From Blastocatellales bacterium (GTDB taxonomy: Bacteria; Acidobacteriota; Blastocatellia; RBC074), in NCBI GenBank assembly GCA_050187295.1, contig JBFWXQ010000016.1, positions 25,944 to 89,943 of the forward strand: a stretch of DNA of 64,000 nucleotides. The letters are read 5' to 3'. Both the position numbers and the translations under genes were made by a program. The notes beneath the pieces were generated by a model. The model made no database searches. It was not told the DNA's origin and worked only from the letters and a program-made list of their open reading frames with translations. Of this stretch, positions 7,414 through 48,282 are shown one piece after another. How positions within the stretch are numbered: the stretch's first letter is position 1; each line of letters starts with the position of its first letter.

Positions 7414-9039
7414 TTACTGCTGCGGAATTTCATCGTGAACGAAGAGAATCAATTCGACACCTGGACGCAGTTTGTATGAGCGCGAACCGATGCGCCATCC
7501 GGGAGCGCCTTCCAGATAAGCTTGCTGATTGACGTTGGCGATGACAATTGGTTGAGTGATGTTCAATGATTCGCCCAGCGGTTTTGGCCAATCACCAATG
7601 TAAGCCGTTCGATCATAATCGCGTAAATACCAGGGCAACGGCCAGTAATCGGGCGAAGCGACGTAAATCCCAGTCTTTTCCTTCGTTGGCAATCCGGCGG
7701 CTTCGCTCTTTATGTCCGCGACCAAACCCAGAATTTCACGATCAGTTTGGGCGTATACATACCCGTACAAACCATCAACATAAGGTTTGAATTCGAGCTT
7801 TTTGCCGAATTCTGCGAAGTACCCGGCTTCGTTGCCATTGTCGTCGTACTTTTCAAAGTTCACTGTCCAGGCCATTCGCCCGCAAGCGATCACCGCCACC
7901 AAAACCAGCGTCAGCCACAGGATTCGCAAGGAAACCGCTGGCAGGAGATGGTAAATCTGCTCTGCCGCATAACCGCAAACCAGCGCCATTGGAATGACAA
8001 AGCTGATCATCAGCCAGGGAGTTTTATAACCGATGATCGAATAGGCCAGCGTCATTCCAAAAGTAAACGCCCCCATAAAAAGCCAGAACCTCGATCCTCG
8101 CCAGATGATTATCAAACCAGCCACGAGCGAGCCAATTAGTAATGGGAGTTCCAGTTTGATCAAGATTCCAAAGTAATACCAGAAAGTTTTGACGTGATCT
8201 TTGCTGCTGCGCTCTTCCGTCCAGTGAGCGATTGATTTGAAGAAATCTGTCACACCTTGCCAATGGCTGAAGAGCGAGGAGTAGAGAAACACGTAAATGA
8301 AAACCAGTATGATGAGCGCCGCAAGCAGATGATCCAGCGAAGGCAGGACGGCAATGGTATCTCGTTTCAGTTCTCTCACTAGCGCCGCCGCAGTTAATTG
8401 ATGCTGTCTTATCAGCGTTCTTGCTGTATCCACAATACCGGCGCAAACAATGGCAAATATCAAAACTGCGAGATTGATGATTGCCGTTTCCTTGGTCGTC
8501 AAAAGCAATCCGACTGAAACCGACGCCAACGCCAGCCAGGTGAATTTCCTGCTTTCAGCATAAAGCCACAGGCCAACCATGATGCCAAGCGTCGCGCATC
8601 CGAAAAGTATTTCGTGAATGAAGTCGCGCGAAAAATAGACCAGACAAGGAGACAAGCCCAGACCAAACGCCGCCACCGGAGTCCCAATCACCCCAAGATG
8701 CCTTCTCCAATACCAGATCAGGGCGATGGTAATCAAACCGAAAATTACCGGCGTCAATCGCAAGGCAAAATCGTTTTCGCCAAATATCCGCACAGCAATC
8801 AATGCGAAGTAATACAGCGAAGGGCCGTGATAATTGGTCGGGTCGTATTTATATTGGCCTGTATGCGAAAGGTTGAGCAGAAAAAAGGAATTTACGCCTT
8901 CGTCGTGATGAAAAGGTTTGATGCCAATTTGATGAAACCTGAACCAGGCGGCAACAATGACGGCAACAACGAATATTGATGCGCAAACGATTTTTCCCGC
9001 GCGAGAGTCAGGTGATTCTATCGCTTTGTCCTCTGACAT
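7414..9039 (-). CDS. Polytopic membrane protein, GT-C (PMT/ArnT/GT39-like) glycosyltransferase-like
   Basis: About 12 predicted TM helices; HHDEGVN resembles the DE motif in the first loop of PMT/ArnT-type transferases; large C-terminal soluble domain. Confidence 0.4.
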   Translation of the reverse strand: MSEDKAIESPDSRAGKIVCASIFVVAVIVAAWFRFHQIGIKPFHHDEGVNSFFLLNLSHTGQYKYDPTNYHGPSLYYFALIAVRIFGENDFALRLTPVIFGLITIALIWYWRRHLGVIGTPVAAFGLGLSPCLVYFSRDFIHEILFGCATLGIMVGLWLYAESRKFTWLALASVSVGLLLTTKETAIINLAVLIFAIVCAGIVDTARTLIRQHQLTAAALVRELKRDTIAVLPSLDHLLAALIILVFIYVFLYSSLFSHWQGVTDFFKSIAHWTEERSSKDHVKTFWYYFGILIKLELPLLIGSLVAGLIIIWRGSRFWLFMGAFTFGMTLAYSIIGYKTPWLMISFVIPMALVCGYAAEQIYHLLPAVSLRILWLTLVLVAVIACGRMAWTVNFEKYDDNGNEAGYFAEFGKKLEFKPYVDGLYGYVYAQTDREILGLVADIKSEAAGLPTKEKTGIYVASPDYWPLPWYLRDYDRTAYIGDWPKPLGESLNITQPIVIANVNQQAYLEGAPGWRIGSRSYKLRPGVELILFVHDEIPQQ

Positions 9040-25853: not shown

Positions 25854-27425
25854 ATGAATAATGGGATCGTCATTCGGCTTGCAGGCATCGAACAGCCAGC
25901 CACACAAATTTTCCATCAGGATGTCATTACGATTGGCACGGCGCCTGATTGCGACATTATCGTCCATCCAGAAAATGATTCTCTCCCCCCTGAGTCAGTA
26001 TTATTGACCTTGCGTCGCCGCGAGGACGCTTACCGTTTAACGACGGTCGAACCCAGAGCAGGTATAACTCGCGATGGCGAGGCCGTTGCAGTCGGCGAAT
26101 TGGTCGATGACGGCGATACCTTTTATTTTGGCGCAACAGGCATACGCCTGCGTTTCTTTTCCCTGACTGAAACTGAAACGATTACTGAATCGTTGCGATT
26201 GGGCAGCGCAGTTCTGGCCACGGCGCGAACGGCAGAGACAACCGTTGCCGATGCCTCGCGTCGCAGACGAATAATGCCGCGCACGGACGTGGCGCTGGTC
26301 TTCGTCAAACAACTGCTGCGTGAGTTGATCAATGAGATCCCGCGCCGAACCCTTTATGCCATCATCGGCGCCGCAGTATTCATCCTGTTGACCATCATCT
26401 ATTTCAACACGCTAGGTTTTCTGGAAGGCCGCCGCAACAACAAAGCCATTGGAGAACTGAAGGACAGCATCACAGCCATTCGCGGTGAATTTGACAAAAC
26501 CCGCGAAGAATTGAAGCTGGCGCGCGAGCAGCAATTGTTGTTGCAGCAATCCCTGTCATTGCCTGAAACAGTCGTCAACACATATGGGCAGGGCGTTTGC
26601 CTGATATACGGAGTTTACAGCTTTGTTGATCCACGCGTGGGTCGCGAAGTCAGATTCAAGGAACCAAGCGCGGTGGATAATCCCATTGGGCCGGACGGAA
26701 TCATCAATCTGAGCGTTGACGGTAATGGCCGTGTTTATGAAGTCGAATTCATGGGAACCGGTTTTCTGGCTGATAAAGGTTTGATTCTGACCAATCGCCA
26801 CGTCGTCCAAGCCTGGGAAGAAGATGATCTGGCCAGTTTAATTCGCATGCGCGGTTTTCGTCCGAAGCTGAAAGACCTGCTGGCTTATTTTCCACAAACC
26901 TCACAACCATTCTCGCTTCGCCCATTGGAAATAATGCAGGATCAAGATGTGGCTCTTTGCTCGTTTGAACAGGGAGATGCGCCACTGCCGGCATTGCCCT
27001 TGGACGATCAGGGCGAAAGCATAGCCAGCGGCCAACCTGTTGTCTTGCTTGGTTATCCAGCCGGATTGGAAGGGCTTAAAGCGCGCGTGGACAAAATAAG
27101 CCGGTCAGGTTACCTGCGAATGGGCAACGTGCCTTATCGCACCCAATTGAATGAATTGGCGGCAACCAGCAAAATTCGCCCGCAATCCACTCAAGGCCAC
27201 ATCAGCGACGTCAGCCCGCAACTGGTTTACGACGCGCGCACTGATGAAGGCGGCTCCGGTGGCCCTGTCTTCGGCGCCAACGGCAAAGTCATCGGCATCA
27301 ATCAAGCGATTTTGCTCAGCACCCAGGCGACGACCAATTTCGGCGTGCCCATTCGTTACGGCATTGAACTGGTCACCAAACATAAAGAGGCTGCGACCTT
27401 GCCCGCGCCACAAGCAATCAATTAA
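25854..27425 (+). CDS. FHA-domain / single TM / trypsin-like (S1) serine protease
   Basis: N-terminal FHA signature ([13 protein letters not shown]...[15 protein letters not shown]); TM helice [18 protein letters not shown]; coiled coil; C-terminal LTNRHVV (His), DVALC (Asp), GGSGGPV (Ser). Confidence 0.6.
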
Positions 27426-27549
27426 CAACTAATTGATACTTATTCTGCTGGAACATTGCTCTATTGGGGAACTGGTCGTATATTCCACCTGCCATTTTTC
27501 AAATCAGTAAAATCAGTCACAAGCCGTTTTTTGCAGGAGGACATCAGCC

Positions 27550-29853
27550 ATGACCAAACAGCCACAACCACAGTCAGTTTCGGCAGTCGACAGAAAATAT
27601 CTTTCAACAGGATTTAAGCATCTGGATGATTTATTGGGCGGGCCCGGTTTTTTGCGCGAATCAGTTATCTTGGTTCGCGGAGAACCGGGAACAGGAAAGA
27701 CATCACTTGCCTTACAAATCGCCCGAAATGCGATCAAAAACTTTGACCATTATCTTGTCTTCGTCTGTGCGGAAGATAAACCAGAGATTTCATTGAATCA
27801 GATTACCGAATCTTATTGGAACCAAGACTATAAGACTTATTTGGGAAACCAGGATAGATGGCAGGCGCTTGACATAGAGGTTTTAACCGAAAGTTGGAAT
27901 AGCCTGCCCGAGGCTGCCGCCGAAGAAATCAAAAAAGGCAAAAAAACTATCTGGAGCCTTATTGGTTTCGGATCATCGGATGAAGCGACCAAAGAAGATC
28001 TGACCAGGAAAAAACTAAGAGAGTTGGGCCAGGAAGAAATAGACAAAATGAGGATGGAGGATCTTCTAGGTAGTCTGTGGAAGTGGTTTATGCCTGAAAG
28101 GGAAAAACCACTGCTTGTGGTCATTGACAGCCTGAGCGCTCTGATTTACTGGGCACAAAGACACTTCAGGGCATATGACGACAGGTACATGTTGTTGGCC
28201 ATCATCCGTTCTTTTGAAAAAAGATGGGAACAGATGAGAATAAAACCTACGGTTATTTTTACCGCAGAAGATGCCGAAACTATCCATAGCAAAACCGCCG
28301 AAAGCTATATTGCCGATGTGGTCATTCAATTGCAGCGCGAGACAATCACTCACCCAATCCCGATTGCGATGGAAAAATCCGCAGACTGGCAAGAAGACTT
28401 GTTATTTTGCCGTGTGTTAAAAGGCCGTGGATTGCCCACTCAACGCCGATCCTGTTGCTATGAATTTGTTAAAGACCCGGAGAACAAGGAAAAGAACGGC
28501 ATTGATTTTTTTCCAACTTATGCCGCACAAGGGCTGATTTCACTGTTTCATGAAAACCTGCCTCAATTCGAGGTAATTCAGAACCTCAGAAAAGTTGACA
28601 TGCCATCTTCTTATCCGGGGGTTATCGTCCAGGAATTCACTCTATCGGGACTGCAAAGAATGTTTGCGGTGCGCAGGTATGTGAGGAAGATTCCTCCTCG
28701 GCATCCAATGCTGCTATCCCACGTTGATGAATATTGGGTTCAAGTATTGAAAGAAGCCGGCTTGCTTTACCCTATTCCAAGTGAGGCTCTTCGTATTTAC
28801 TCACTGCCTTTATCTGATGATAACCAAGTGATCAAAGAGTTAAGCGAGGCGAAGGCAAAAAGGTATCTTGACGATTCATCTGAGCCAGGCAAAGTCAATT
28901 TTCTGGCAGTGCCGCAAATGGGCAATGTCGGGTTGATGGTTTATCGCAAAGACCTGCTCAGATCCATTGGGATTGAAACGCCGCCGGAAACCTGGGAAGA
29001 ATTGGAAAGTATCGGCCGGGAATTGCAATCTCCGGATTTGCCACACCCTCTTCTGATTGAAACCCAGACCTACGACACATTACTGGTCACCGCGCTGGAA
29101 CTAGGTTGGGGACACGGATCGTTCTGGTCAACTAAGCGGGATGAAGAGAACAAGGAAAGGCTCTTTATCAAACTTGAATCTGACAACGAAGCCTGCTTTG
29201 ACGATTTCGTTGTATCACTAGAAAGATTACGCCGTTGGATTCACGAAGATAAATTTGTTCCGATGCAATCAAGTGTTGACCCGGCCAAACATCCCAAAAC
29301 GGATTGGGTCTTTGCGCGGCATTGGTATTCGACCTGGGTGGATTACCGAACACGACCAAACAAGAAAAAAAGCAGTCTGATGGCCCAAATAAAAGAGAGT
29401 GATGAATTTGGAATCGCGAAAATTCCTATCTCCAAAGAGTATATGAAAAGGCAGAACACCCATTTGCCCAAACACCATTCCAGTTCGGGTGAATGGTATC
29501 TGGTTATTCAGGCCAACTCTGAAAATGTCGAATTGGGAATAGACCTCATCAATAACCTGATGTCTTCACGAAAAGTCACCGAGCGGGCGTTGGCAGGTGT
29601 TGAATTACCTGTTATGGAAAAGTTTTATGAAGCCTATGGATCGGTTTCGTGTTATGGCACAGATAAGACATTTAGCGAAATGCGCCAGATGTTCGCCGCT
29701 GATGCACGCAGCAGAGCGGAATTTGATGATTACAGGAAAGTCGGGCGAGTGCTTTACGGCGTTCTTCAGGCGGTTGTAACAAACCAATCAGTTAACGTCA
29801 GGGAATTGCTGGTCGACGCATTTAGGAGGCTTGATCCTGATTTCAAACCATAG
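27550..29853 (+). CDS. KaiC/RecA-superfamily single-domain ATPase fused to a type-1 extracellular-solute-binding-protein-like domain (no signal peptide)
   Basis: GFKHLDDLLGGPGFLRESVILVRGEPGTGKTSLALQIA (KaiC/RadA-like Walker A) and LLVVIDSLSAL (Walker B). C-terminal half shows SBP_bac_1-like segments (LMVYRKDLLRSIGIETPPETWEELESIGREL; GEWYLVIQANSENVELGIDLINNLMS). SD AGGAGG. The gene is visibly AT-richer with AGA/AGG Arg codons. Confidence 0.5.
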   Translation: MTKQPQPQSVSAVDRKYLSTGFKHLDDLLGGPGFLRESVILVRGEPGTGKTSLALQIARNAIKNFDHYLVFVCAEDKPEISLNQITESYWNQDYKTYLGNQDRWQALDIEVLTESWNSLPEAAAEEIKKGKKTIWSLIGFGSSDEATKEDLTRKKLRELGQEEIDKMRMEDLLGSLWKWFMPEREKPLLVVIDSLSALIYWAQRHFRAYDDRYMLLAIIRSFEKRWEQMRIKPTVIFTAEDAETIHSKTAESYIADVVIQLQRETITHPIPIAMEKSADWQEDLLFCRVLKGRGLPTQRRSCCYEFVKDPENKEKNGIDFFPTYAAQGLISLFHENLPQFEVIQNLRKVDMPSSYPGVIVQEFTLSGLQRMFAVRRYVRKIPPRHPMLLSHVDEYWVQVLKEAGLLYPIPSEALRIYSLPLSDDNQVIKELSEAKAKRYLDDSSEPGKVNFLAVPQMGNVGLMVYRKDLLRSIGIETPPETWEELESIGRELQSPDLPHPLLIETQTYDTLLVTALELGWGHGSFWSTKRDEENKERLFIKLESDNEACFDDFVVSLERLRRWIHEDKFVPMQSSVDPAKHPKTDWVFARHWYSTWVDYRTRPNKKKSSLMAQIKESDEFGIAKIPISKEYMKRQNTHLPKHHSSSGEWYLVIQANSENVELGIDLINNLMSSRKVTERALAGVELPVMEKFYEAYGSVSCYGTDKTFSEMRQMFAADARSRAEFDDYRKVGRVLYGVLQAVVTNQSVNVRELLVDAFRRLDPDFKP

Positions 29854-31096
29854 GAGTACATTTTTGTTTTTTGCTCTTATCCACATCGGCAGAAATTTTT
29901 CTCAATTTCCAGACTCTAAGTAAGTTCGCAGGCGACAAGCCCGCTCGGCTGATTTTCGCCAGCAAATCGAATGGGCGTCGCAGGTAATTCCAGTAAACGC
30001 TTCCCTGTTGCGGTTGGCCGTAAATCTGTTCCAAATGCTCTCGCGAAGTGAAAAGCATGGAAACCAGATTTCCCAGTTTGGCCAATGGATGACGGCCAAA
30101 ATCGAAGTATTCAAACAATCGTGCGGCGTCAATCAAACCTTGCGTTTCTTCTGTCAAGGCAGTTTCCATCAGCAAAGCCATTCGATCGTCGCTGACGGCT
30201 TTGTCCAATTCTTCGAGCGAACTGTCAGCCAGCATTTTCAACATTTGAACGGCCAGCATTGCGGCTCCTCCAAATCCGAATTCCGTCGCTTGCCGGATCA
30301 TCGCTTCGCGCGCTTCGGCTTCGCGGGCAAAAATGAAATACAGATCGGCGGCGGTTCGCAAAATTGCTTTGGTCGTTTGCAGATCAACCAGCGTGTGATG
30401 AACCAGATGAAAAGCCAGATCGGTTGATGAAGGAAGCAGTATGTCGTTTCCTGAAATTGAAACGGTGACAGCTCGATTGCGGATTTCGGCAAAGCTGAAA
30501 TCGCGCGCGCGCCTGGCAAAATGAAAAGCGCGGTGATGAAGTTCCAGGATCAGTCCGTTGGCTCCGCGACGCGGCCAAAGATGGTTGATGTCATTGGCCA
30601 ATCGCTGGCGAGGCCGCGCTGAACGCTTTCCTGGCAAATGATGATACCCAAGCCCGGCGACGATTTGATCAGCCCGTTCAAGCTTTTCCGGCTCAACCAG
30701 CAGGTCAATATCAAGCGCAGCTCGCAATCCGGCCTGCGGATAATATCCGCACAGCATCAATGCCGCGCCTTTCAGCGGAATTGCAGTGATGCCTTCGGCT
30801 TTCAATGCAGCTGTCAATCGCGCAGCTTCGTTGACATAAGCCAGGTGGCGAGCCGCCCACGTCTGGCTGGCATCGCGCAATTGTTCGCGCTGCTGTTCCG
30901 GCAAGGAATTCAGCAACCCGAATTGCGACAGATTGAACCGCAACAGCGAAGCGACGCTGTGAAATTCAGCGCGGCGGATCGTCTCAGGCCAGGCAATCTC
31001 ATCCCGTGAAGCCAGCAGTTGACGCATTCGTTCATCGCTGGCTTCGGTCGGCAGCAACCCGCTCAGCAGCAATTTGTCAGTGTTGGTGAGTATCAC
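29843..31096 (-). CDS. Uncharacterised nucleotidyltransferase family protein (PF14907/NTP_transf_5-like)
   Basis: ALDIDLLVEPEK matches the D-x-D-LLV motif of this family; about 400 aa; 3' end overlaps the KaiC-like gene by 11 nt (convergent). Confidence 0.5.
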   Translation of the reverse strand: MILTNTDKLLLSGLLPTEASDERMRQLLASRDEIAWPETIRRAEFHSVASLLRFNLSQFGLLNSLPEQQREQLRDASQTWAARHLAYVNEAARLTAALKAEGITAIPLKGAALMLCGYYPQAGLRAALDIDLLVEPEKLERADQIVAGLGYHHLPGKRSARPRQRLANDINHLWPRRGANGLILELHHRAFHFARRARDFSFAEIRNRAVTVSISGNDILLPSSTDLAFHLVHHTLVDLQTTKAILRTAADLYFIFAREAEAREAMIRQATEFGFGGAAMLAVQMLKMLADSSLEELDKAVSDDRMALLMETALTEETQGLIDAARLFEYFDFGRHPLAKLGNLVSMLFTSREHLEQIYGQPQQGSVYWNYLRRPFDLLAKISRAGLSPANLLRVWKLRKISADVDKSKKQKCTPMV

Positions 31097-31161
31097 AAAA
31101 GGTGGAGCGCGAACGTCTCAGTCTGCAAACCGGAACGCGGACGTCATCGTCCGCGTTCCGG

Positions 31162-32961
31162 TTAAACCTCAAGTCCGACAGCGCGCATCAATTCCAGCGC
31201 GTTGCTACGTTGGACGACGCCAGAACGCATGCGGTAATCGAAAATCATTTGGCCATTTTCCAGCCGGTCTTCGAAGTGAACGTTTTCGCTGCGATTGCCA
31301 AGCGTATCGGCGATGCGAGTCAAAGCCAGATCGTGAGTAGTGACCAGGCCAATAGCTCCGCGTTCGACCAATCCGCGCACGACAGCTTCGGCGCCGATTC
31401 GCCGGTCGTGCGAGTTTGTCCCGCTCAGAATTTCGTCCAGCAAAAACAGCAACGGCAATTCGCCTTCGGTCAGTTCGACAATCTGTTTCAAGCGAGTGAT
31501 TTCGGCATAAAACCGCGAAGCGCCGGTTTGCAACGAATCCAGAATGTGAATCGAAGCGCCGATGGCCAGCGGCGAAACCCGCAAGCTTCGAGCGCAAACC
31601 GTAGCCCCAGCCAATGCCAAAACCACGTTGATACCGACCGTTCGCATCAGAGTGCTTTTGCCAGACATGTTCGATCCGCTGACAATCAGCAAACGGCGTT
31701 CATCGTCAAGTCTGACATCATTACGAATGCATCGCGATTCCGGCAGCAACGGATGACCCAGGGCTTGACCCTCAAAGCAGGTTTCGTTTTCGACGATTTC
31801 AGGAAAAGGATTTTGCGGACGCTCGAAAGCGAAATTGGCCAGCGCATTCAAGGCTTCGATTTCGCCGACTGCGTCGAGCCATTCGGAAATGTGTGATCCT
31901 GAAATTTGCCGCCAACGCTCAACGCCAAAAGCCACTTGCGCTGGCAACAGCAGCAGGAAAGCTATCGGCGCAAAGAACTGATTTTTCGTCCAGCCCAGAA
32001 CTTCCACCAGACGATGCAATTTGGCTATCTGCCGTGATGGCGGCAATCCTTCGGTATCCAGCCGGGCACGAAGCTGCGCCAGTTTCGGCGAATCAAACGG
32101 CTCGCGTTCCAATCGCTCCAGGATTTCGGCCAGCAAATCCAGATCGCGCACAGGACGCTCGACGGCGGAAATCACTTCCGCCACCTGTTGGCGATACCGG
32201 CCATAAAACAGCAGCAAAAACAAAATCGCGACCAGGGCAGGCAGTCGAAAACCAAAGGCTATCCAACCGGCGACAGTCCCGACTGCCAGCAATCCAGTGA
32301 CAGCCGCAACCGCGGTCAAAACGCCGATTTGCGACAATTGAAAAACAGCTTTGTTTTTCCCCCAGGCTTCGATTTCTTCGGTGTGAACTCCGGTGCGAAC
32401 TTCAGCGCCGAGCAAAGCCAGGTCTTCGCGCAAATCCAACCGCGAGCGCAATTCTTCAACCGCCGATTGACGCAATCGAATTTCTTCGACCGCGGCAGGC
32501 GATTTCAACCATCCGGCCAGCTTCTCTTCGCCAGCTCGCGTTCGCGCGGTCGAAAGCAATTCAAATAACGATCCTTTGCCGAACAAATCCAGGTCTTCGG
32601 CGTAAAGGTGAGCGGCGTCGGCAAACTGTTCGCCTGTTTCGCCCGTTCCGATCCAGTTATCATCCAAACGCGCCAGACCGCGCTCGTAAAATTTCACCGA
32701 CCGGGTCAATCGTTCGACTTCGCCCAGCAGGCCTTGATGCAGAACCATCAGCGCAATGAAAGCGACGATCGGCAACGCAATCCACCACCACGAAATATGA
32801 TCATCGAAAGCCAGCACAGCCATCACGGCGATGACGACAAACAGAATCCGCCGCGCAACCCAGATGTTGCTGCTGCGGCGCAGTTTGGCGGCGAGCATCG
32901 TGCGGCGCTCTTCCAACCTTTGACTATATTCAATTCGAGGATCGTTCAAAAGCTTTTCCAA
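31162..32961 (-). CDS. Membrane-anchored MutS-domain-V (MutS-related) ATPase
   Basis: N-terminal and central TM helices, then a C-terminal MutS ABC-ATPase domain (LLIVSGSNMSGKSTLMRTVGINVVLA, LFLLDEILSGTN, TTHD). Confidence 0.65.
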   Translation of the reverse strand: MEKLLNDPRIEYSQRLEERRTMLAAKLRRSSNIWVARRILFVVIAVMAVLAFDDHISWWWIALPIVAFIALMVLHQGLLGEVERLTRSVKFYERGLARLDDNWIGTGETGEQFADAAHLYAEDLDLFGKGSLFELLSTARTRAGEEKLAGWLKSPAAVEEIRLRQSAVEELRSRLDLREDLALLGAEVRTGVHTEEIEAWGKNKAVFQLSQIGVLTAVAAVTGLLAVGTVAGWIAFGFRLPALVAILFLLLFYGRYRQQVAEVISAVERPVRDLDLLAEILERLEREPFDSPKLAQLRARLDTEGLPPSRQIAKLHRLVEVLGWTKNQFFAPIAFLLLLPAQVAFGVERWRQISGSHISEWLDAVGEIEALNALANFAFERPQNPFPEIVENETCFEGQALGHPLLPESRCIRNDVRLDDERRLLIVSGSNMSGKSTLMRTVGINVVLALAGATVCARSLRVSPLAIGASIHILDSLQTGASRFYAEITRLKQIVELTEGELPLLFLLDEILSGTNSHDRRIGAEAVVRGLVERGAIGLVTTHDLALTRIADTLGNRSENVHFEDRLENGQMIFDYRMRSGVVQRSNALELMRAVGLEV

Positions 32962-32973
32962 AATCTTCTTCCG

Positions 32974-35121
32974 TCATTTCTTCGGCAAGGCAAACGCCAC
33001 GTAACTGCCGCCCGAGGCTGAGCCTTTGCCGCCTCCGCAGGCGATGACGATGAATTGGCGTCCGCCGGCTTCGTACATCGCCGGTGTCGCGTTGCCAGCC
33101 GCGGGCAGTTCTGTTTCCCATAACAATTGTCCGGTCAGTTTATCGAAGACGCGAAACTTTTTGTCGTAATTTGTCGCGGCGATAAAGAACAAACCGTTTT
33201 TGGTGACAATGCCTCCGCCGTAATTTTCGCTGCCGGTGTTTTTCATTCCCTTCGCGGCCAGCGCTGGATATTCGCCGAAAGGAATCTGCCACTTGATTTT
33301 GCCGGAATTCAAATCAATCGCGTTCAGCGTTCCCCACGGCGTGGCGATGGCCGGATAACCTTCGTTGTCCAGAAATTTGTTGTAACCGGTGTGCGTGTAT
33401 TTCAAATCAATCGGGTTCGCGGGCAAATCCACTACTTCTTTCGAAACGACGGTGTCCTTGCCTGACAGTACGTACATGGTAATCGCCTGAATCGCATCGC
33501 CGCCCAATCTGGCAAATCCAGGCATGCGCCCCAGACCATTGCGAATCAAACCACGCAAATCCTGATCGCCCATCTTGCTGGCCAGATTTTTCAACGAAGG
33601 AAATTCCGGCGGCGAACCGCTCATGTCTTTTTGGTGACAGTTGGCGCAATTTGCTTCGTAAAGCGATTTTCCGCTGACCTGTTTGGCTTTGGCGCGCGGA
33701 ACCAGTTGCAGTATCCAGGCCATCTCGTTGGCATTGACGTAAAGCAATCCGGTTTCAGGATCGAAAGCCGCGCCGCCCCATTCTCCGCCGCCATCGTAAC
33801 CAGGAAAGATGATTGTTCCTTCAAAACTCGGCGGTTCAAATTGCCCGTTGCTGCGAATCTTGCGGAATTTGTCGAGCGCGAATTGATGAGCTTCGGGCGT
33901 ACGTTTGGTCAGCATATCTTCGGTCAATCGCTGCCTTGCGAAAGGTTCAGGCAAAGAAGGCAGCGGTTGGGTTTCAGCCAGCTTTTCGCCCTCAACCTCA
34001 GATTGCGGATATTTTCGGTATTCAATCGGGAACAATGGTTTGCCGGTCGCCCGCTCAAACAGATAAACGTGGCCGGATTTGGTGATCTGAGCGATGGCGT
34101 CAATATTGCGCCCGTTTCGTTTGACCGTTACCAATGCAGGGGCTGACGGAAAATCTCGATCCCAGACATCGTGTTTGATCGCCTGAAAATGCCAGATACG
34201 TTTGCCAGTGTTGGCGTCCAGACAAAGCAATGTATTGGCAAACAAATTATCGCCGTGGCGATTCGCTCCGTAAAAATCGAAGGCCGATGAACCGGTCGGA
34301 ACAAAAACCAAACCGCGTTTCTGATCAACAACCAGTCCAGCCCAATTGTTGGCTCCTCCCAAAAAAGAACGCGCATCTTTCGGCCAAGTGTCGGCGCCGA
34401 GTTCGCCCGCAGCCGGAATCGTGCGAAAGCTCCAGCGCAATTTTCCCGTTCGCAAATCGTAAGCGCGAATGTCGCCCGGCGCGGCAGGCAAACCTTCGCT
34501 GACCAGGCTGCCGATGATCAGCATGTCTTTGAACACCACGCCCGGCGTGGTCAGCATCACCGTCAAACCGTCAATCTGCTGGCGTCCCAAATCCTTGCGC
34601 AGATCAATCCAGCCGCCTTCGCCAAAGGATTTGACCGGCTGGCCGTCTTTGGCATCCAGCGCGTACATACGATTGCGATAACCGACGAACAATCGTTTCT
34701 CGTTTCCATCCTGCCAAAAAGTCAGTCCGCGATTGCGCATCTTGCCGAAACCCTTGCGGCCTTCATTCGGATCGAAGCCCCAAATCTCTTTGCCGGTCGA
34801 TGCGTCCAGCGCCACTATCCGCAATTTCGGCGTCGTGGCGTACAGCACTCCATCAACGACAATCGGATTGCACTGCATCTCCGAACCGTCGAATTCATCG
34901 CCACTGTCGTAACGCCAGGCGATTTCCAACCGGCCGACGTTTTCGCGCGTGATCTGAGACAGTTCGGAATAATGAATGTTTTCTTCGCCGCCGCCGAACA
35001 TTCGCCATTCGCGGTATCTGGTCGAAGTCTTACCGCTTTGCGCTTGCGTGCCGTAAACGAAAAAGCCCAAGCCGGCCATCAACGCGACGGCGATTCCAAG
35101 TTTCAATGTTTTCATAAGCAT
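32974..35121 (-). CDS. PQQ-dependent dehydrogenase (eight-bladed propeller, alcohol-dehydrogenase-like) with an internal mono-haem cytochrome c domain
   Basis: C-terminal [12 protein letters not shown]...YVAFALP blade typical of PQQ-ADH; CANCH haem-binding motif; signal peptide. Probable start ATG 35121 (or 35115); the ORF track extends to 35229. Confidence 0.6.
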
Positions 35122-37714: not shown

Positions 37715-40700
37715 TCATTCACCATTCACTGCCTTTCGCAAAGTTCGTCCAGCCAGCGCGCCATTGTATTTGCTGTTTTCCACAGACAGTTTGCCGTTGA
37801 CGAAAATGAAGCGCAAGCCTTCGGCTTGTAGCTCCGGCTGGTCGTAAGTCGAACGGTCGGCGATGGTCTTCGGATCGAAGACAACCACATCAGCAAACCA
37901 GCCTTCGGCCAGTTTGCCGCGATTGCGCAGGTGAAAGGTTTCGGCGACTTGCGAACTGCTGGCCTGGATCATTCGCTCCATTGAAATGATTTTGCGGTTC
38001 AAAACGTATTCGCGAATCTTGCGCGGATACGTTCCCCATTTGCGCGGATGACCGCCAGAACCGTCAGAGCCGGTCATCACCCAAGGCTGACCCATGAAAT
38101 TTTCAATGTCGGCTTCGGTCATGTTGAACGAAGTCACTCCGGCGTTTCCGGCTTTGATAATTTCCAGAGCCGTTTCAACCGGCGATTTGCCGCGCGCGCG
38201 AGCGATTTCGTCCAGACGTTTGCCGACCAGATTGCGGTCGGCTCCGCCGCGAATCAACAGAGAGTTCGCGCCGCCGCGTCGTTTCAAATTCACTTCCATT
38301 TCGGCAATCAGCTTCGGACGAATGGCCGGATCGTCAATGCGTTTGAGCATTTCCTGCCTGCCGCCGGCTTCGGCCCAACGAGGCAGCAGCGCTGCGCTCA
38401 ACCCCGTCCCCGAAGCGATGTAAGGATATTGATTGGCCGTGACGTTGACGCCTTCAGCGCGAGCGCGGTTGATCAGCGCAATGGCCTCCCCGCTTTTGCC
38501 CCAGACATCCGCGCCCAGAGCTTTGATGTGAGAGATGTGAACCGGAATGCGGGCTTCGCGTCCGATGCGAATGACCTCCTCAATCGAACCGAGCAGGCCA
38601 ATGGTGTAAGAGCTTTCATCGCGTTGATGCGTGTCGTAAACGCCGCCGAATTCAGCGGCGATTTTGGCCAGTTCGATGACTTCTTCGGTTTTTGAATAAC
38701 TGCCCGGCGCGTAATACAAACCTGTCGAAAGCCCAATCGCGCCTTCGATCATTCCCTGCCGCACCAGAGCTTTCATCTTTTCCAGTTGCTCAGCCGTTGG
38801 CGCAGCATCAACCGATCCCATCACCGCCTGTCGAACCGCGTTGTGACCGACGAAGGAAGCGACGTTTGTGCCGATGCCTTGCGTTTGCAATTGCTGCAAA
38901 GCTTTGCCGAGCGGTATCCGGCTGCGTCCATCGCTGCCGATGAAAACGGTCGTCACTCCCTGAGTCAGAAAGGCCAGATTCGCGTTTCGCTTGGGATCAA
39001 AAAGATCCTCGTCGGCGTGCGTATGCGGATCAATGAAACCGGGAGCGACGATCAAACCTGCGGCGTCAATCACGCGGTCGGCTTGAACGTTCGCGGTTGC
39101 GGCATCGCCGACGAACGTGAGGCGGTCGCCGGTGATGCCGACATCTGCCTTTATTGCCGGACTGCCGGTGCCGTCAATCACACTGCCGCCGCGAATCAGC
39201 GTGTCAACTTTTGCGGTTTTAGGTTTGGCAGTTTTCAGGTGGCGTTCAAAGAAATCAAACGAAGCTTTGTAAATTTTGACCCAATGCCGATGCAGCAAAA
39301 AGTCATGAACTTCGTCGGGGAAGACAATCGTTTCGTGCGGAACATTCTGTTCGCGCAATCGGCGGACAAGATCAACCGTTTGCGAAAAAGCCACGTTGCG
39401 GTCGTCGTCGCCATGAATCAGCAAAACCGGGGAGCGCCATTTTTCAACCGAACTGACCGGCGAAGCTTCAAAGGCGATTTTCACCGCGTCGCGATTGCCG
39501 TATTCGACCCAGTTGGCGTTTGAAAGTCGCACCGACCAATCGTGAACTCCATGCAGATCAACTCCGGCGGCGAACAAGTCCGAATTGCGAGCCAATCCAA
39601 GAGCAGTCAAATACCCACCATAACTGCCTCCCCACAAACCAATGCGAGCCGGATCAATGTCCGCGCGCGAACGCAGGAATTGCGCTCCGGCGACTATGTC
39701 CTGATATTCCGAAGCTCCGCGACCGCCGCCGTTCTTGGCCTGTCGAAAAGCACGACCATAACCAATGCCCAGACGGTAATTGACTGACAAGACGGCGTAA
39801 CCACGGCTCGCCAAAAACTGATTGAAGCCGTAAGCATTGTGGTAGTAGTACCGATTATGCCAACCCAGAAACATCTGCCGCATCGGGCCTCCGTGCATGA
39901 ATATCACCGCAGGCAATTTGTCCGAAGGTTTGGCGTCTTTGGGCAGGAACAATTGCCCGTGAATTTCCTGGCCGTCGGCAGCTTTGAATATGACTTGCTG
40001 TGGTTTTACGAGATTCTTTGCCGAAAATAAGTTTTCGTTCTCAAACCTGAGCTTTAGATTCACTCCGTATGCTTCAGATTCCGGATTAATCTGATTGAAT
40101 GTCGAAATGGAGATTCTACCTGGCGCAAATGCATCGGATTCAAAATAACAGAGTTTGTTCCCGTTGCCTGTAATGGTTGGTTGCCATTGAATGCTTTCAT
40201 CTCTTTGCGGCCCGTTTGGCGTCGCAAGATTGCCAGTAAGCGAGTAGGGCTGGCCGCCCGTAACAGGAGTGCGCCAGAGATGACGACGATCAATGTCTTC
40301 GTGATTTGAAGAGTAAACGACGTAACGACGATTGGGGCTGAAGTTCATTGTTTCAATTTCACTGGCAGTCGGAGAAAGTGCTATTACTTCGCCTCCACTG
40401 GCCGCAATCGAATAGAGCCGCATCCAGCCGTCCATTTCCGAAGCGAAGACCAGCCGATTATCCGCAGCCCATTGCAACAGGTTTTCTCCAGCCATTCGCG
40501 GCGGGCTGTCTTCCGGGCGATTGCCGCTGCGCCAGATTTCTTTGGCGATTCCTGTTCCGGCGTCGGCTACCCAGATCGTCCAGGGATCGGGCGCGTCCTG
40601 CGTCAACGAACGAGGAGCGTTGCCGCGAGCCGGTTGGCGAATGAACGCAATCCGCTTTCCGTCCAAAGACCATCGCGGCGCGGAGTCGCGGTCAACCGAA

Positions 40701-41389
40701 GGCGAGATGTAACGAATCGTCTGTTTTTCAAAATCGTAAACGCCGATGTAGCTGTGAGTGCCGCGCGAACTGTTGAACGCCAGTTGTTTTCCGTCCGGCG
40801 ACCATTGCGGCGTGATGTTGATGCCGCGCGCAACGAAAAGCTGATGAGGTTCGGAACCGGCGGCGATTTCGACAATGCCGATTTGCCGGTTGCGGTTGTA
40901 TACGACGCGGTAATCGGTGGGCGAAACAACCGGAGAATCGCCTTCGGCCAATGTCACTGTGCGACCGCTGGCGACTTCGACGGCCAGAATTTCCTGCTTT
41001 GCGCCTGCTGTGTCGCTGGTTGGATTCGGAACTTCGCCCGCCGAGTTTTCTCCGCCGCCGCGCACAAACACTATCCATTTGCCGTCGTGAGTGAAAACCG
41101 GATCTGTGATTTCCTGCCCGGTGTCTTCGTTGTATTGCGTCAATTGCCGAGCCTTGAAATCAGGCCCGTCCGCAACCCAGATGTTGCGCTTGCCTTCGGC
41201 GTCAAAAACCCAGGCAATGCGCTCGCCAACCGGCGCGGCAATCAGGTCTGAGGGAAAGGGTGAGCTAAGAACCTGTTCAATCGTGAAGCCGCCGCTTTGC
41301 TGAGCAGTCGCGCGAGCGAAGTTAAACCACACAGCGCCAGCGATAAAAGCAACGGCGCAGAACGAAACAAGAATCCGTCTGATCTTCAT
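37715..41389 (-). CDS. Secreted three-module protein: TolB-like WD40 beta-propeller, prolyl-oligopeptidase-family (S9) peptidase, and C-terminal N-acyl-D-amino-acid deacylase/amidohydrolase
   Basis: Signal peptide from ATG 41389; propeller repeats (SPDGK..AF); S9 GGSYGGY nucleophile motif with HGDDD; C-terminal LIRGGSVIDGTG...APGFIDPHTHAD metal-dependent amidohydrolase motif. Confidence 0.6.
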   Translation of the reverse strand: MKIRRILVSFCAVAFIAGAVWFNFARATAQQSGGFTIEQVLSSPFPSDLIAAPVGERIAWVFDAEGKRNIWVADGPDFKARQLTQYNEDTGQEITDPVFTHDGKWIVFVRGGGENSAGEVPNPTSDTAGAKQEILAVEVASGRTVTLAEGDSPVVSPTDYRVVYNRNRQIGIVEIAAGSEPHQLFVARGINITPQWSPDGKQLAFNSSRGTHSYIGVYDFEKQTIRYISPSVDRDSAPRWSLDGKRIAFIRQPARGNAPRSLTQDAPDPWTIWVADAGTGIAKEIWRSGNRPEDSPPRMAGENLLQWAADNRLVFASEMDGWMRLYSIAASGGEVIALSPTASEIETMNFSPNRRYVVYSSNHEDIDRRHLWRTPVTGGQPYSLTGNLATPNGPQRDESIQWQPTITGNGNKLCYFESDAFAPGRISISTFNQINPESEAYGVNLKLRFENENLFSAKNLVKPQQVIFKAADGQEIHGQLFLPKDAKPSDKLPAVIFMHGGPMRQMFLGWHNRYYYHNAYGFNQFLASRGYAVLSVNYRLGIGYGRAFRQAKNGGGRGASEYQDIVAGAQFLRSRADIDPARIGLWGGSYGGYLTALGLARNSDLFAAGVDLHGVHDWSVRLSNANWVEYGNRDAVKIAFEASPVSSVEKWRSPVLLIHGDDDRNVAFSQTVDLVRRLREQNVPHETIVFPDEVHDFLLHRHWVKIYKASFDFFERHLKTAKPKTAKVDTLIRGGSVIDGTGSPAIKADVGITGDRLTFVGDAATANVQADRVIDAAGLIVAPGFIDPHTHADEDLFDPKRNANLAFLTQGVTTVFIGSDGRSRIPLGKALQQLQTQGIGTNVASFVGHNAVRQAVMGSVDAAPTAEQLEKMKALVRQGMIEGAIGLSTGLYYAPGSYSKTEEVIELAKIAAEFGGVYDTHQRDESSYTIGLLGSIEEVIRIGREARIPVHISHIKALGADVWGKSGEAIALINRARAEGVNVTANQYPYIASGTGLSAALLPRWAEAGGRQEMLKRIDDPAIRPKLIAEMEVNLKRRGGANSLLIRGGADRNLVGKRLDEIARARGKSPVETALEIIKAGNAGVTSFNMTEADIENFMGQPWVMTGSDGSGGHPRKWGTYPRKIREYVLNRKIISMERMIQASSSQVAETFHLRNRGKLAEGWFADVVVFDPKTIADRSTYDQPELQAEGLRFIFVNGKLSVENSKYNGALAGRTLRKAVNGE

Positions 41390-41668
41390 AAGCAATTTTC
41401 CGAGTTGATGGTTGATGTTGGTTTGGCGAAACCTGTCCGGCGCGAACGATAATACAGTGGCGCGTGAGTGACAACCGTCAGAAACCGCCGCGATCAGACT
41501 AATGTAGCCAATTCCAAATTTTTCTATTTGAGTTCTGCAAGAAGTTCGCAAAGCCGCCGTTCATCTGTCACCAACTCCGAAATCACTGGCATTAAACACG
41601 TCTGCCGACGAAACCTCATCGGCAGGCTCAGACAACCATTTTAACAAGCGACATCAGGAGGCAAGTTT

Positions 41669-47571: not shown

Positions 47572-48282
47572 ATGCTGACATTACTAACTTTATTGATGTT
47601 GTCTGTTTCGCCTGTACTTGAAGTTCAAACCGGCGCGCAACTCGACCCCGCCCAACTCCCTCTGACAGCAGCCACCGCCAATGATTTCGTCCCGAAAGGA
47701 TGGATGATTGAAAACGAAACCATTGGTGATCTGAACAATGACTCGATTCCCGACCTTGCCGTCACTCTGGTTGAGCAGCTACCACCAGGCGCGAAAGAAA
47801 TTGAAGTCACAGGTCCTCCCGAACGGCAGCGCGCTCTTCTCATACTTTTCAAAACTCAGAATGGCAAATTTCAGAGAGTGGCATTGGCGAACAAAGTTTT
47901 GCTCTGCACTCGATGTGGCGGCGCTTTTTTTGGGATGGTTGAAACTCCAACGAATGTTGAAATCAGCAAAGGAGTGATCATCATCAATCAGGAATATGGA
48001 TCGCGGGAACTTGATAAAGAAACATTCCGATTTCGTTACGAACCGGAAACGAAACGCTTCGCCTTTATTGGCGTGGACGTGAACAGCCACGATAGATTGA
48101 CAGGCGAAAACGTAGTTCAAAGCATCAATTTCCTGACCGGATTCAAGCTGACAACCAAAACACGTATTGACGACCGAACAGGTGATGAAAAACGGACATT
48201 GAACAAAGGACAGCGCATACAACGCAGCAAAAAATATATCGAAGATGTAATTGCAGGATATGGTACGCAGGAGAAGATATGA
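47572..48282 (+). CDS. Hypothetical exported protein inserted between moaD and moaE
   Basis: N-terminal hydrophobic signal-like segment; no recognisable family; start 2 nt after moaD stop; stop overlaps moaE start (ATGA); AT-richer than its neighbours. Confidence 0.4.
   Translation: MLTLLTLLMLSVSPVLEVQTGAQLDPAQLPLTAATANDFVPKGWMIENETIGDLNNDSIPDLAVTLVEQLPPGAKEIEVTGPPERQRALLILFKTQNGKFQRVALANKVLLCTRCGGAFFGMVETPTNVEISKGVIIINQEYGSRELDKETFRFRYEPETKRFAFIGVDVNSHDRLTGENVVQSINFLTGFKLTTKTRIDDRTGDEKRTLNKGQRIQRSKKYIEDVIAGYGTQEKI

Follow-up and report, generated by a model that had tools for sequence, protein, structure and literature searches.

A rare bacterial protein family joins a KaiC-like ATPase to a maltose-binding-protein-like domain in the cytoplasm

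MalE-type receptors act outside the cell together with ABC transporters, and KaiC-type ATPases act inside the cell as slow switches or timers. One gene in the window, by which we mean the whole 64,000-nucleotide stretch of Blastocatellales DNA analyzed here, encodes both in one polypeptide. Is this fusion real, and what would a solute-binding protein (SBP) fold do for an ATPase in the cytoplasm? A protein identical to the gene product is present at NCBI (MGE0884538.1, from a Blastocatellales metagenome-assembled genome), where it is labeled "extracellular solute-binding protein."

An earlier note, made from the sequence of this DNA, had reported the open reading frame (ORF), the Shine-Dalgarno-like hexamer in front of it, and three stretches of motifs: GFKHLDDLLGG...GEPGTGKT (residues 21 to 51), LLVVIDSL, and YRKDLL...PPETWEELE (residues 465 to 486). 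All of these are present (Table 1). Its reading of the protein as KaiC plus SBP was borne out by a Pfam scan, in which both domains scored above the curated cut-offs. The note had worried that the ORF might be a frameshift fusion of two genes, but the gene is intact, and its conservation extends over the full length of 29 compact, 4 sigma-fused, and 62 long relatives; these 95 full-length relatives are the basis of all the conservation counts given below. Also as the note had claimed, there is no signal peptide, and the SBP-like domain is cytoplasmic. Hydropathy analysis of 20 family members found no signal peptide, lipobox, or transmembrane (TM) segment (the maximum Kyte-Doolittle value of any 19-mer was ≤1.65), the maxima always fell on the core strands of the ATPase or on other buried segments, and the N terminus of the protein is the ATPase domain. 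The statement that no characterized family has this architecture held as well: neither a name nor a paper for a KaiC-SBP family was found in profile databases or in the literature on KaiC plus SBP and on KaiC-like architectures. Thus, the gene is a real, conserved, uncharacterized fusion of a KaiC-type ATPase to a maltose-binding-protein-like domain in the cytoplasm, a new architecture assembled from known parts. Searches for promoters and terminators near the gene gave results at chance level only, and the window contained no Rfam or tRNA features.

Table 1. Features of the gene and its product. Positions are those of the window; residues are those of the protein; counts refer to the 95 full-length relatives.
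Feature	Position	Strand	Basis
Shine-Dalgarno-like AGGAGG, 9 nt before the ATG	27535..27540	+	Read from the sequence
CDS, 767 aa plus stop, KaiC-like ATPase fused to SBP fold	27550..29853	+	ORF list; full-length homologs
Single KaiC/RecA-type ATPase domain, residues 14-322	27589..28515	+	Pfam PF06745; PDB KaiC matches; hhalign
Walker A, GEPGTGKT, residues 44-51	27679..27702	+	K50 in 95/95, T51 in 94/95
E75, catalytic-Glu position after strand 2 (KaiC "EE" position)	27772..27774	+	E in 88/95, D in 4/95; aligned with "E" of KaiC CI/CII
Variable, mostly helical, charged insert, residues 95-185	27832..28104	+	Low conservation, low pLDDT, varying length
Walker B, LLVVIDSL, residues 188-195, with D193	28111..28134	+	D193 in 95/95; aligned to KaiC "VVIDS"
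S252 in "ESYIAD," candidate autophosphorylation site	28303..28305	+	S in 94/95; hhalign pairs "eSYiAD" with CII "vSYLAD"
KGRG (K291, R293), Lys/Arg-finger strand (K-x-R-G of KaiC)	28420..28431	+	K in 92/95, R in 91/95; aligned to CI "KyRG" and CII "KKR"
Linker-less junction GIDFFPTYAAQGLISLFHENLPQF, last KaiC strand to first SBP strand plus E335-N336	28498..28569	+	Family alignment; DSSP strands of the model
Complete MalE/TMBP-type (SBP_bac_1) two-lobe solute-binding fold, residues 323-767, cytoplasmic	28516..29850	+	
N459, position of a sugar-binding acidic residue (D118 of T. thermophilus alpha-glycoside-binding protein)	28924..28926	+	Alignment to 6j9w
YRKDLL...PPETWEELE, classic SBP_bac_1 N-lobe/hinge motif	28942..29007	+	Aligned to MalE3 "YYRKDLLEKYG...PRTWDEL"
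W649 in GEW, position of W287 (mutated by the 6j9w depositors), presumed sugar-stacking Trp	29494..29496	+	W in 95/95
R722 in RSRA, position of R356 of the alpha-glycoside-binding protein	29713..29715	+	Aligned to "AVSRP"; R in 93/95

The N-terminal part of the protein is a single ATPase domain. Its match to PF06745 scored 58 bits (cut-off, 26.6 bits; E value, 1.2e-15), and hhalign aligned it with both domains of circadian KaiC, with CI at 99.86% (229 columns) and with CII at 99.91% (218 columns). These alignments covered Walker A, Walker B, "TAE," "SYIAD," and "KGRG"; the best match in the PDB was 8zn5 (E value, 1e-16). The catalytic residues are intact and conserved (Table 1), and E240 is conserved in 93 of the relatives. 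The domain would probably hydrolyze ATP and assemble as a hexameric ring, as predicted from the conserved Arg finger on the strand that builds the active sites between subunits.

The near-invariant Ser, S252, aligns with a conserved serine of CII and may be the equivalent of S431 of S. elongatus; for the KaiC-type autokinase suggested in the note, it would be a candidate site. The residue that follows it is Tyr or Phe, unlike the Thr of the S431/T432 pair. The window protein further differs from circadian KaiC in having one KaiC domain where the clock protein has the CI-CII tandem, and with the equivalog models for the circadian protein (NF006799 / TIGR02655) it scored 63.2 bits against a cut-off of 408 and 31.4 bits against a cut-off of 546. 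There is no kaiA or kaiB nearby (the KaiA and KaiB Pfam families were found neither among the immediate neighbors scanned in the window nor among the called genes of homologous loci), and nothing points to an oscillator. Among the NCBIfam subfamilies there was no match above the cut-off.

KaiC-like ATPases have reportedly been proposed as signaling hubs, and signaling roles have been proposed for single-domain proteins such as PH0186. The single-domain proteins of the KaiC/RadA/RecA clade (for example, the archaeal PH0186/PH0284, SSO2452, and ArlH/FlaH) share with the window protein one RecA-type domain and the motifs GxxxLDxxLGG, GxPGxGKT, hhhhDS, "TAE...SYIADxVI," and K-x-R-G; a profile search of the PDB matched PH0186, SSO2452, and PH0284. 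In contrast to them, the window protein, which is bacterial, adds a variable 90-residue helical insert between the Walker motifs and, uniquely, a 445-residue MalE-type domain joined straight to the last strand. Mean column conservation in the insert was 0.24, versus about 0.6 elsewhere, and its length varies across the family alignment. In the predicted structure (pTM = 0.64), pLDDT was 41 to 66 across residues 121 to 170.

The C-terminal part matched the SBP_bac_1 profile (PF01547) and has the two-lobe fold of class II periplasmic-binding proteins. The closest structures are noncatalytic transport receptors with ordinary sugar-binding geometry; identity to the sugar receptors T. maritima MalE3, T. 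litoralis TMBP, T. thermophilus alpha-glycoside-binding protein, and A. tumefaciens SmoF is 13% to 19%. Unlike the SBP_bac_1 receptors, the window protein lacks an export signal, is not accompanied by genes for a permease or ATPase partner, and has its binding fold covalently joined to an ATPase. Three cleft positions can be compared with D118, W287, and R356 of the T. thermophilus protein, which are taken to be ligand residues on the strength of the titles of PDB entries for the depositors' mutants (the number of W287 is taken from the printed alignment). At the first of these, the family sequence "qManvG" aligns with "FFTDAG" of wild-type 6j9w and with "FFTAAG" of the D118A mutant, 6jai. The Asn found there, N459, is kept in 33 of 33 compact and sigma-fused forms but in only 41 of 62 long forms (74/95 overall), and is thus less conserved in the latter. 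Five residues of the cleft, W649, R590, W592, D393, and W396, are invariant in all 95 relatives. The putative sugar-subgroup residues of the cleft are conserved, and ligand binding itself is predicted.

The two halves of the protein are about equally conserved (majority fraction, 0.58 to 0.63), and the family has invariant motifs of its own, FARHWYSTW, GEWYL, and SENVELGIDLINNL. The halves meet without a linker: the DSSP strands of the model at the junction are residues 317 to 320 and 328 to 333, and E335 and N336 are each conserved in 94 of the 95 relatives. The hypothesis, raised in the note, that the SBP domain would gate the ATPase gains support from this junction and from the conservation of the cleft.

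The family is rare, with 173 representatives among 1.84 billion, nearly all of them metagenomic and from the Acidobacteriota and Planctomycetota. A scan of reference genomes yielded, among the matches listed, ordinary KaiC/RecA loci only, and the generic P-loop pattern dominated. The long forms, of which there are more than 60, carry 100 to 600 additional residues inside the SBP half, and no Pfam domains were found in these inserts. A separate lineage (P0046, P0048, and P0061; MCE5240997.1, likewise labeled "extracellular solute-binding protein" at NCBI) has a double-domain KaiC (Pfam E value, 1e-97) followed by SBP_bac_1 (E values, 1e-22 to 1e-27) and is just 21% to 23% identical to the window protein. 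As in the window protein, the sugar-type SBP directly follows KaiC and no signal peptide is implied; unlike the window protein, these forms have the canonical CI-CII tandem and a more typical SBP. They, too, are uncharacterized. Because this lineage independently joins a canonical double-domain KaiC to SBP_bac_1, it is probably a separate fusion event, and the pairing would have arisen more than once. Another apparent architecture, "SBP + HATPase_c" (P0027), was dropped; the contig comes from a long-read assembly, is fragmented, and has many genes that are broken.

Four clusters at 50% identity (P0018, P0019, P0121, and P0122) have a complete extracytoplasmic function (ECF) sigma factor at the N terminus and are 43% identical to the window protein over the full length. 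In these four subfamilies the C-terminal extension of the sigma factor is the KaiC-SBP module. TIGR02937 is matched over positions 1 to 165 of 165 in P0019, and the other three match almost the whole of it. The fusion is limited to these 4 of about 95 full-length representatives; the sigma-2 and sigma-4 domains were found in no others and are absent from the window protein. This arrangement resembles that of groups such as ECF41 and ECF42, in which a fused C-terminal domain takes the place of a separate anti-sigma factor. To our knowledge, the known C-terminal extensions of ECF sigma factors are SnoaL-like or TPR domains, not ATPases, and in the literature searched, neither a KaiC-type ATPase nor an SBP fold was described as such an extension.

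There was no conserved operon partner. An all-versus-all comparison of the ORFs at 12 loci gave only the synteny between the window and one other locus (L001) and a small membrane protein that occurs sporadically. Neither in the window nor at 10 other loci does an ABC permease or ATPase gene lie beside the gene, and there are no carbohydrate-metabolism neighbors at the loci of the compact family. Two candidates were rejected as general partners. An upstream FHA-TM-trypsin protease, considered as a phospho-dependent partner, is a neighbor only in the window and in a close relative; a DUF6082-like protein with two TM segments is adjacent at 2 of about 10 independent loci and absent from the window.

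We propose that the gene product is a ligand-gated KaiC-like signaling ATPase, that is, a metabolite switch made of one protein, and we give this reading a probability of about 0.5. The cytoplasmic single-domain P-loop ATPase would probably form a ring whose subunits share active sites, and the MalE-type flytrap would close on a small, carbohydrate-like cytoplasmic ligand. Because there is no linker and the nearly invariant E335-N336, on the first SBP strand, comes right after the last ATPase strand, closure could be transmitted rigidly to the ring. ATP turnover would then change, possibly with autophosphorylation of the near-invariant S252, and the state so reached would determine whether a downstream partner is bound. 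As an ECF sigma factor is the one partner to which the evidence points, the output is probably transcriptional. For the window protein, which stands alone, we infer the oligomeric state, the ligand class, the coupling of the domains, the phosphorylation, and the output partner. A more general and quite tentative idea is that the whole family consists of metabolite-gated KaiC switches in which the flytrap sets the ATPase or phospho-state of the ring and the ring holds or releases an ECF sigma factor, fused in certain lineages and separate in the rest, as an "hourglass" or integrator that a metabolite, instead of KaiA/KaiB, would entrain. On this idea, the family would also provide the first MalE-type SBP known to act inside the cell as an allosteric sensor for a P-loop ATPase.

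Other explanations have to be weighed, two of which concern the gene itself. The protein could be an artifact, with two genes fused by a frameshift or in the assembly, or it could be an exported transporter SBP as NCBI named it, and besides that name, two homologs that occur as split genes could be cited in its favor. However, the missing half of each split copy is the adjacent gene on the contig (the ORFs abut in L006 and overlap in L007), and the contig of another fragmented copy, L028, is visibly broken up throughout. With the fusion present in many independent assemblies, which together supply 95 full-length representatives, always with an invariant junction, with no export or membrane segment and no adjacent transporter genes, and with an N-terminal ATP-dependent domain that could not function extracellularly, an artifact is effectively refuted. 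Composition raises the other explanation, recent acquisition from an AT-rich donor, with a presence incidental to host biology. The gene has the lowest GC content of the 43 ORFs in the window (0.454; z = -3.0), its GC3 is 0.473 (z = -2.4), the AGA/AGG share of its Arg codons is 0.50 versus a mean of 0.14 (z = +4.0), and the composition changes sharply at both ends of the gene. The earlier note had taken this as foreign codon usage. The gene is indeed an AT-rich outlier in GC content and Arg codons, but its use of AAA for Lys (0.75 versus 0.70) is not distinctive, and its neighbors, at about 53% GC, are not the GC-rich genes that had been described. Nor did horizontal acquisition, the cause suggested there, agree with the homologs. 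At six homologous loci in hosts of 48% to 67% GC, the gene is in each case 5 to 11.5 GC points below its host, and the GC content of the homologs, from 0.364 to 0.616, tracks that of the host, which would not be expected of repeated transfers from one pool. An ortholog with 67% identity lies between the same neighbors, 70% to 80% identical, in L001 and L002 and has the same deficit (GC, 0.436 versus 0.539). In the window, the gene is not flanked by mobile-element genes, and no copies of family members were found on plasmids or phages. Because the deficit recurs at six loci, the syntenic ortholog shares it, and plasmid or phage copies were not found, the AT shift is an old, maintained property; AT-richness is a persistent trait of the family and not a sign of recent transfer. 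We regard acquisition of this kind as highly improbable.

The remaining two explanations concern function. In a conflict- or defense-type sensor NTPase, the SBP would recognize an invader- or stress-derived molecule and the ATPase would be the switch or effector, encoded by a mobile accessory gene. The low GC content at all six loci and the rare AGA/AGG codons would fit such a gene, as would its sparse, patchy distribution and its evolution, which is faster than that of its syntenic neighbors (67% versus 70% to 80% identity). The persistent AT shift and the patchy distribution are, indeed, not explained by a housekeeping regulatory role. Toxin-antitoxin or insertion sequence genes surround several loci: L001 has HEPN/MNT and PIN, L025 has an rve transposase, and in L026 the double-KaiC variant has VapB/PIN next to it. 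The best matches in PADLOC-DB v2 were to mad8 (22.5 bits, residues 37 to 198), Nhi (21.1 bits), and AbiO (20.9 bits), but scores of 21 to 22 bits are weak, Nhi and AbiO cover only the Walker A region (residues 37 to 92), and all the matches lie in the ATPase domain; there was no significant match to a PADLOC-DB v2 defense model beyond the P-loop. No effector domain (nuclease, TIR, pore, or protease) is fused or consistently adjacent, no plasmid or phage copies were found, synteny is stable between two diverged genomes, and the ECF-sigma fusions indicate transcriptional regulation. We therefore consider a defense role unlikely. Just as unlikely, in our judgment, is that the SBP half is not a sensor but a substrate-holding or catalytic module or a scaffold. 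The protein would then be a machine that uses ATP to act on a carbohydrate or glycoconjugate, or its flytrap would mediate protein-protein contacts. RecA-type rings are typically motors, and some enzymes, cyclohexadienyl dehydratase and THI5-type proteins among them, are built on the SBP fold. Since SBP folds have been recruited as enzymes or scaffolds, the conservation of the cleft, which with its five invariant residues and E335 and N336 resembles that of an enzyme active site, is no proof of signal sensing; the extra residues of the long forms, moreover, lie in this same half. On the other hand, the closest structures are all noncatalytic, carbohydrate-metabolism genes are not neighbors at the compact-family loci, the characterized ATPases of the KaiC clade are slow switches rather than translocases, and fusion to an ECF sigma factor suits regulation better.

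The ligand-gated signaling ATPase that we favor would be built from textbook modules that come from opposite sides of the membrane, KaiC and MalE, fused with intact residues across about 95 representatives. The fusion, its probable second origin, and its occasional use as an ECF-sigma extension together suggest a compact route by which bacteria would turn the concentration of a cytoplasmic metabolite into a transcriptional decision that depends on ATP and may integrate over time. If this is true, the family would provide a new type of input for KaiC-like signaling beyond cyanobacteria and archaea and a new class of regulator for ECF sigma factors; as a natural MBP-ATPase allosteric pair, it would be of interest in biosensor design. 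Whatever its function, the name automatically assigned to the protein by NCBI is incorrect and will be carried over to new genomes.

The window is unremarkable chromosomal DNA from a metagenome-assembled acidobacterial (Blastocatellales) genome, and the gene studied here encodes a 767-aa protein identical to NCBI MGE0884538.1 (162-kb contig; [quoted passage not shown]). The Pfam scores of KaiC (PF06745; 58 bits, cut-off 26.6) and SBP_bac_1 (PF01547; 35.7 bits, cut-off 26) both exceed their thresholds, so the two-domain architecture proposed in an earlier note stands. The motifs quoted there are all in place (GFKHLDDLLGG...GEPGTGKT at residues 21-51, LLVVIDSL at 188-195, and YRKDLL...PPETWEELE at 465-486), and the Shine-Dalgarno sequence was found as well. 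Over residues 18-94 the top PDB sequence matches were to KaiC, and over residues 451-532 to two sugar receptors, MalE3 and TMBP; a family profile widened these regions to residues ∼14-260 and ∼450-760, respectively. We compared the ATPase domain with the tandem KaiC halves, CI and CII, using separate alignments of each half from 60 double-domain KaiC homologues. Profile-profile alignment gave 99.86% probability over 229 columns for CI and 99.91% over 218 columns for CII. The aligned columns take in both Walker motifs (A and B), the catalytic Glu, and the "TAE" and "KGRG" strands along with "SYIAD".

None of 20 family members examined had a signal peptide or transmembrane (TM) segment, which agrees with the earlier claim of a cytoplasmic SBP-like domain. 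Because the N-terminal domain is ATP dependent, the whole window protein must, to judge from its sequence, be cytoplasmic, and the NCBI product name is thus a misnomer. The misannotation is systematic: MGE0884538.1, MBN1796833.1, and MCE5240997.1 were all auto-named "extracellular solute-binding protein" although each begins with an ATPase and lacks an export signal. Driven by the SBP_bac_1 match, it covers both the KaiC-SBP family and the double-KaiC variant described below.

The alignments indicate that the gene is a genuine KaiC-SBP fusion, not the frameshift product that the earlier note had considered. No linker separates the last KaiC strand (GIxFFP) from the first SBP strand (GLVSLFxEN), and this junction is kept family-wide. 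The apparent half-proteins P0022 and P0026 come from split copies, with the other half encoded by an adjacent or overlapping ORF. Across 1.84 billion cluster representatives, an exhaustive profile search recovered 173 proteins at E ≤ 1e-30. Among the matches listed were 29 compact full-length forms (685-835 aa), 4 sigma-fused forms (∼1000-1035 aa), and 62 long forms (840-1380 aa), whose SBP half contains an insert in which no Pfam domain was found.

Conservation among 95 full-length representatives suggests that the ATPase and SBP halves both look functional. Mean conservation is equal in the two halves (0.58-0.63), and further family-specific invariant positions are E335/N336 right after the junction, D393/W396, and R590/W592. 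A helical 90-residue insert of the ATPase domain (residues 95-185) is variable (conservation 0.24) and has low model confidence. The K-x-R-G strand of KaiC, source of the Lys/Arg finger for the neighbouring subunit, pairs with K291 and R293. The conserved Ser of CII "vSYLAD" pairs in the profile-profile alignment with S252, which would correspond to S431 of S. elongatus KaiC (…SHIS431T432ITD…). In the SBP half, N459, W649, and R722 align with D118, W287, and R356 of the T. thermophilus alpha-glycoside-binding protein, three of the four residues mutated by its depositors (PDB entry titles); the numbering was fixed by the printed alignments of wild-type 6j9w ("FFTDAG") and D118A mutant 6jai ("FFTAAG").

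Features of the window, of the window protein (counts among 95 representatives), and of homologous loci (L numbers)
Feature	Location	Strand	Remark
AGGAGG	27535-27540	+	9 nt before ATG, read from sequence
KaiC-SBP CDS	27550..29853	+	ORF list
FHA-TM-trypsin-like protease	25854..27425	+	523 aa, directly upstream
NTP_transf_5 (PF14907) nucleotidyltransferase	29843..31096	-	downstream, convergent
MutS-like ATPase	31162..32961	-	599 aa
Low-GC ORF	11..1294	+	GC 0.474; AGA/AGG 0.30
Low-GC ORF	7414..9039	-	GC 0.489; AGA/AGG 0.35
Low-GC ORF	47572..48282	+	GC 0.464
Peptidase-amidohydrolase fusion	37715..41551	-	1278 aa
Walker A	K50		95/95
Catalytic-Glu position	E75		88/95, D in 4 more
Walker B	D193		95/95
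"TAE" strand	E240		93/95
Candidate phospho-site	S252		94/95
K-x-R-G strand	K291 / R293		92/95 and 91/95
Cleft, D118 position	N459		74/95; 33/33 in compact and sigma-fused forms
Cleft, W287 position	W649		95/95
Cleft, R356 position	R722		93/95
ECF sigma-KaiC-SBP fusion	L024 2930..6022		P0018, P0019, P0121, P0122 group
Double-KaiC-SBP gene	L026 and L027 8001..10637		P0046/P0061/P0048 family
Two-TM/coiled-coil protein	L003 4928..5377, L004 2356..2805, L005 298..765	+	∼150 aa
HEPN/MNT-containing flank	L001 9378..13671		syntenic with window ∼29843..33000

Four 50%-identity clusters (P0018, P0019, P0121, and P0122) carry a complete N-terminal ECF sigma factor joined to a KaiC-SBP module, and are 43% identical to the window protein across its full length. 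The NCBIfam model TIGR02937 is covered at positions 1-165 of 165 in P0019 and nearly entirely in the other three; among subfamilies, three of the four clusters match TIGR02989 (Planctomycetes/Verrucomicrobia type) best. C-terminal extensions are known to regulate the ECF sigma factors that carry them, and so the fusions give a Rosetta-stone hint that the KaiC-SBP module may regulate a sigma factor. No published description of KaiC-SBP as such an extension was found. The double-KaiC variant (P0046, P0061, and P0048; ∼877 aa) combines a canonical double-domain KaiC (Pfam E 1e-97) with a strong full-length SBP_bac_1 (E 1e-22 to 1e-27). Because it is only 21-23% identical to the window-protein family, the pairing of KaiC and SBP probably arose more than once. 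At L026, GH2 and pectate-lyase-like genes lie beside the variant gene, whose start is overlapped for 4 nt by an unannotated 128-aa ORF.

As the earlier note supposed, the KaiC-SBP combination belongs to no characterised family that we could find: we found it assigned in neither NCBIfam, Pfam architectures, nor PADLOC, and came upon no paper on it. Its parts are known, as is the general idea that KaiC-like ATPases serve as signalling hubs and the SBP fold acts as a sensor, and we therefore rate it a new architecture, probably with a new mode of input, rather than a system new in kind.

The upstream protease, an unusual protein, starts with an FHA-like domain (Yop-YscD_cpl), which is followed by a hydrophobic segment (residues ∼165-185), and ends in a serine protease of trypsin type (Trypsin_2). 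Its L001 counterpart is syntenic and 80% identical, and it is not beside other family members; in PADLOC, the protein weakly resembles the protease portion of RT-Protease_XI. The 3′ ends of the KaiC-SBP and NTP_transf_5 genes overlap by 11 bp, with no terminator-like site found between them; AT-poor composition reaches ∼400 bp into the 3′ end of the latter. The MutS-like protein, encoded next, has only MutS_III and MutS_V, with an N-terminal hydrophobic region (residues ∼20-75) and without mismatch-binding domain I; its scores against MutS2 and KamC reactivase ATPase models were below cut-off. The same gene arrangement surrounds the P0003 orthologue (67% identical) in L001 and L002, and the neighbours in the remaining homologous loci are unrelated. 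In L001, the NTP_transf_5 and MutS-like genes are separated by an inserted HEPN and MNT (NTP_transf_2) pair, and a PIN-domain gene lies past the MutS-like gene. The window has neither, and the flank looks like a hotspot for toxin-antitoxin insertion.

No linked ABC-transporter genes, kaiA, kaiB, or consistent effector gene were found in the window or homologous loci. An all-against-all comparison (ORFs ≥60 aa within 4 kb of the family gene, 12 loci) gave no recurrent partner bar one protein with two N-terminal TM helices, a coiled-coil tail, and a weak DUF6082 match. It lies beside the family gene in two independent contexts (downstream in L003/L004, upstream in L005), in two versions 31% identical, and has no homologue in the window or other compared loci.

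In composition, the KaiC-SBP gene stands apart from the rest of the window, with the lowest GC (0.454, versus 0.526 ± 0.024 for the other 42 ORFs; z = −3.0), a GC3 of 0.473 (mean 0.572; z = −2.4), and an AGA/AGG share of Arg codons of 0.50 (mean 0.14; z = +4.0). The AT-rich composition and AGA/AGG usage described earlier hold, but the AAA share of Lys codons (0.75 versus 0.70) is not distinctive. The horizontal acquisition that they were said to indicate is not supported by comparison with homologues. GC deficits versus flanks occurred at all homologous loci examined (−0.103, −0.100, −0.115, −0.051, −0.068, and −0.099), in hosts of 48-67% GC, and family-gene GC follows host GC (0.364 to 0.616). 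The deficit is also seen in the syntenic orthologue, which is itself somewhat more diverged (67% identity) than its neighbours (70-80%). The AT shift is therefore, on these comparisons, an old, maintained family trait, and recent acquisition in this genome is very improbable. The shift could reflect codon usage for low expression, regulation of the xenogeneic-silencing type, or ancient transfers that recurred and were partly ameliorated.

In our main reading, to which we give a probability of about 0.5, the protein is a KaiC-like ATPase of the cytoplasm that probably forms rings. A carbohydrate-like ligand would bind the fused flytrap and set the state of the ring, and this state would be passed to a transcriptional (ECF sigma) output, at least in some lineages. 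The comparisons show the architecture, the cellular location, the conserved catalytic and cleft residues, and the existence of sigma fusions; the oligomer, ligand class, coupling, phosphorylation of S252, and partner of the stand-alone protein are here what we infer. The AT shift, the patchy distribution, evolution faster than that of the neighbours, and surroundings rich in TA/IS genes would also suit a defence or conflict sensor NTPase. However, there is no effector, PADLOC matches are all confined to the ATPase domain, and mobile-element carriage is lacking (no family member on 72,556 plasmids or in 50,697 phage records), and we consider such a sensor unlikely. We also doubt that the SBP half has a substrate-handling or enzymatic role. 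Beside the conserved junction and the lack of export signals, an artefact or a truly exported SBP is scarcely credible.

Three other low-GC ORFs of the window, two of them with raised AGA/AGG, may be further accessory genes in a region otherwise of 52-55% GC. The window also encodes a large fusion of PD40 beta-propeller repeats, prolyl-oligopeptidase (Peptidase_S9), and C-terminal Amidohydro_3.
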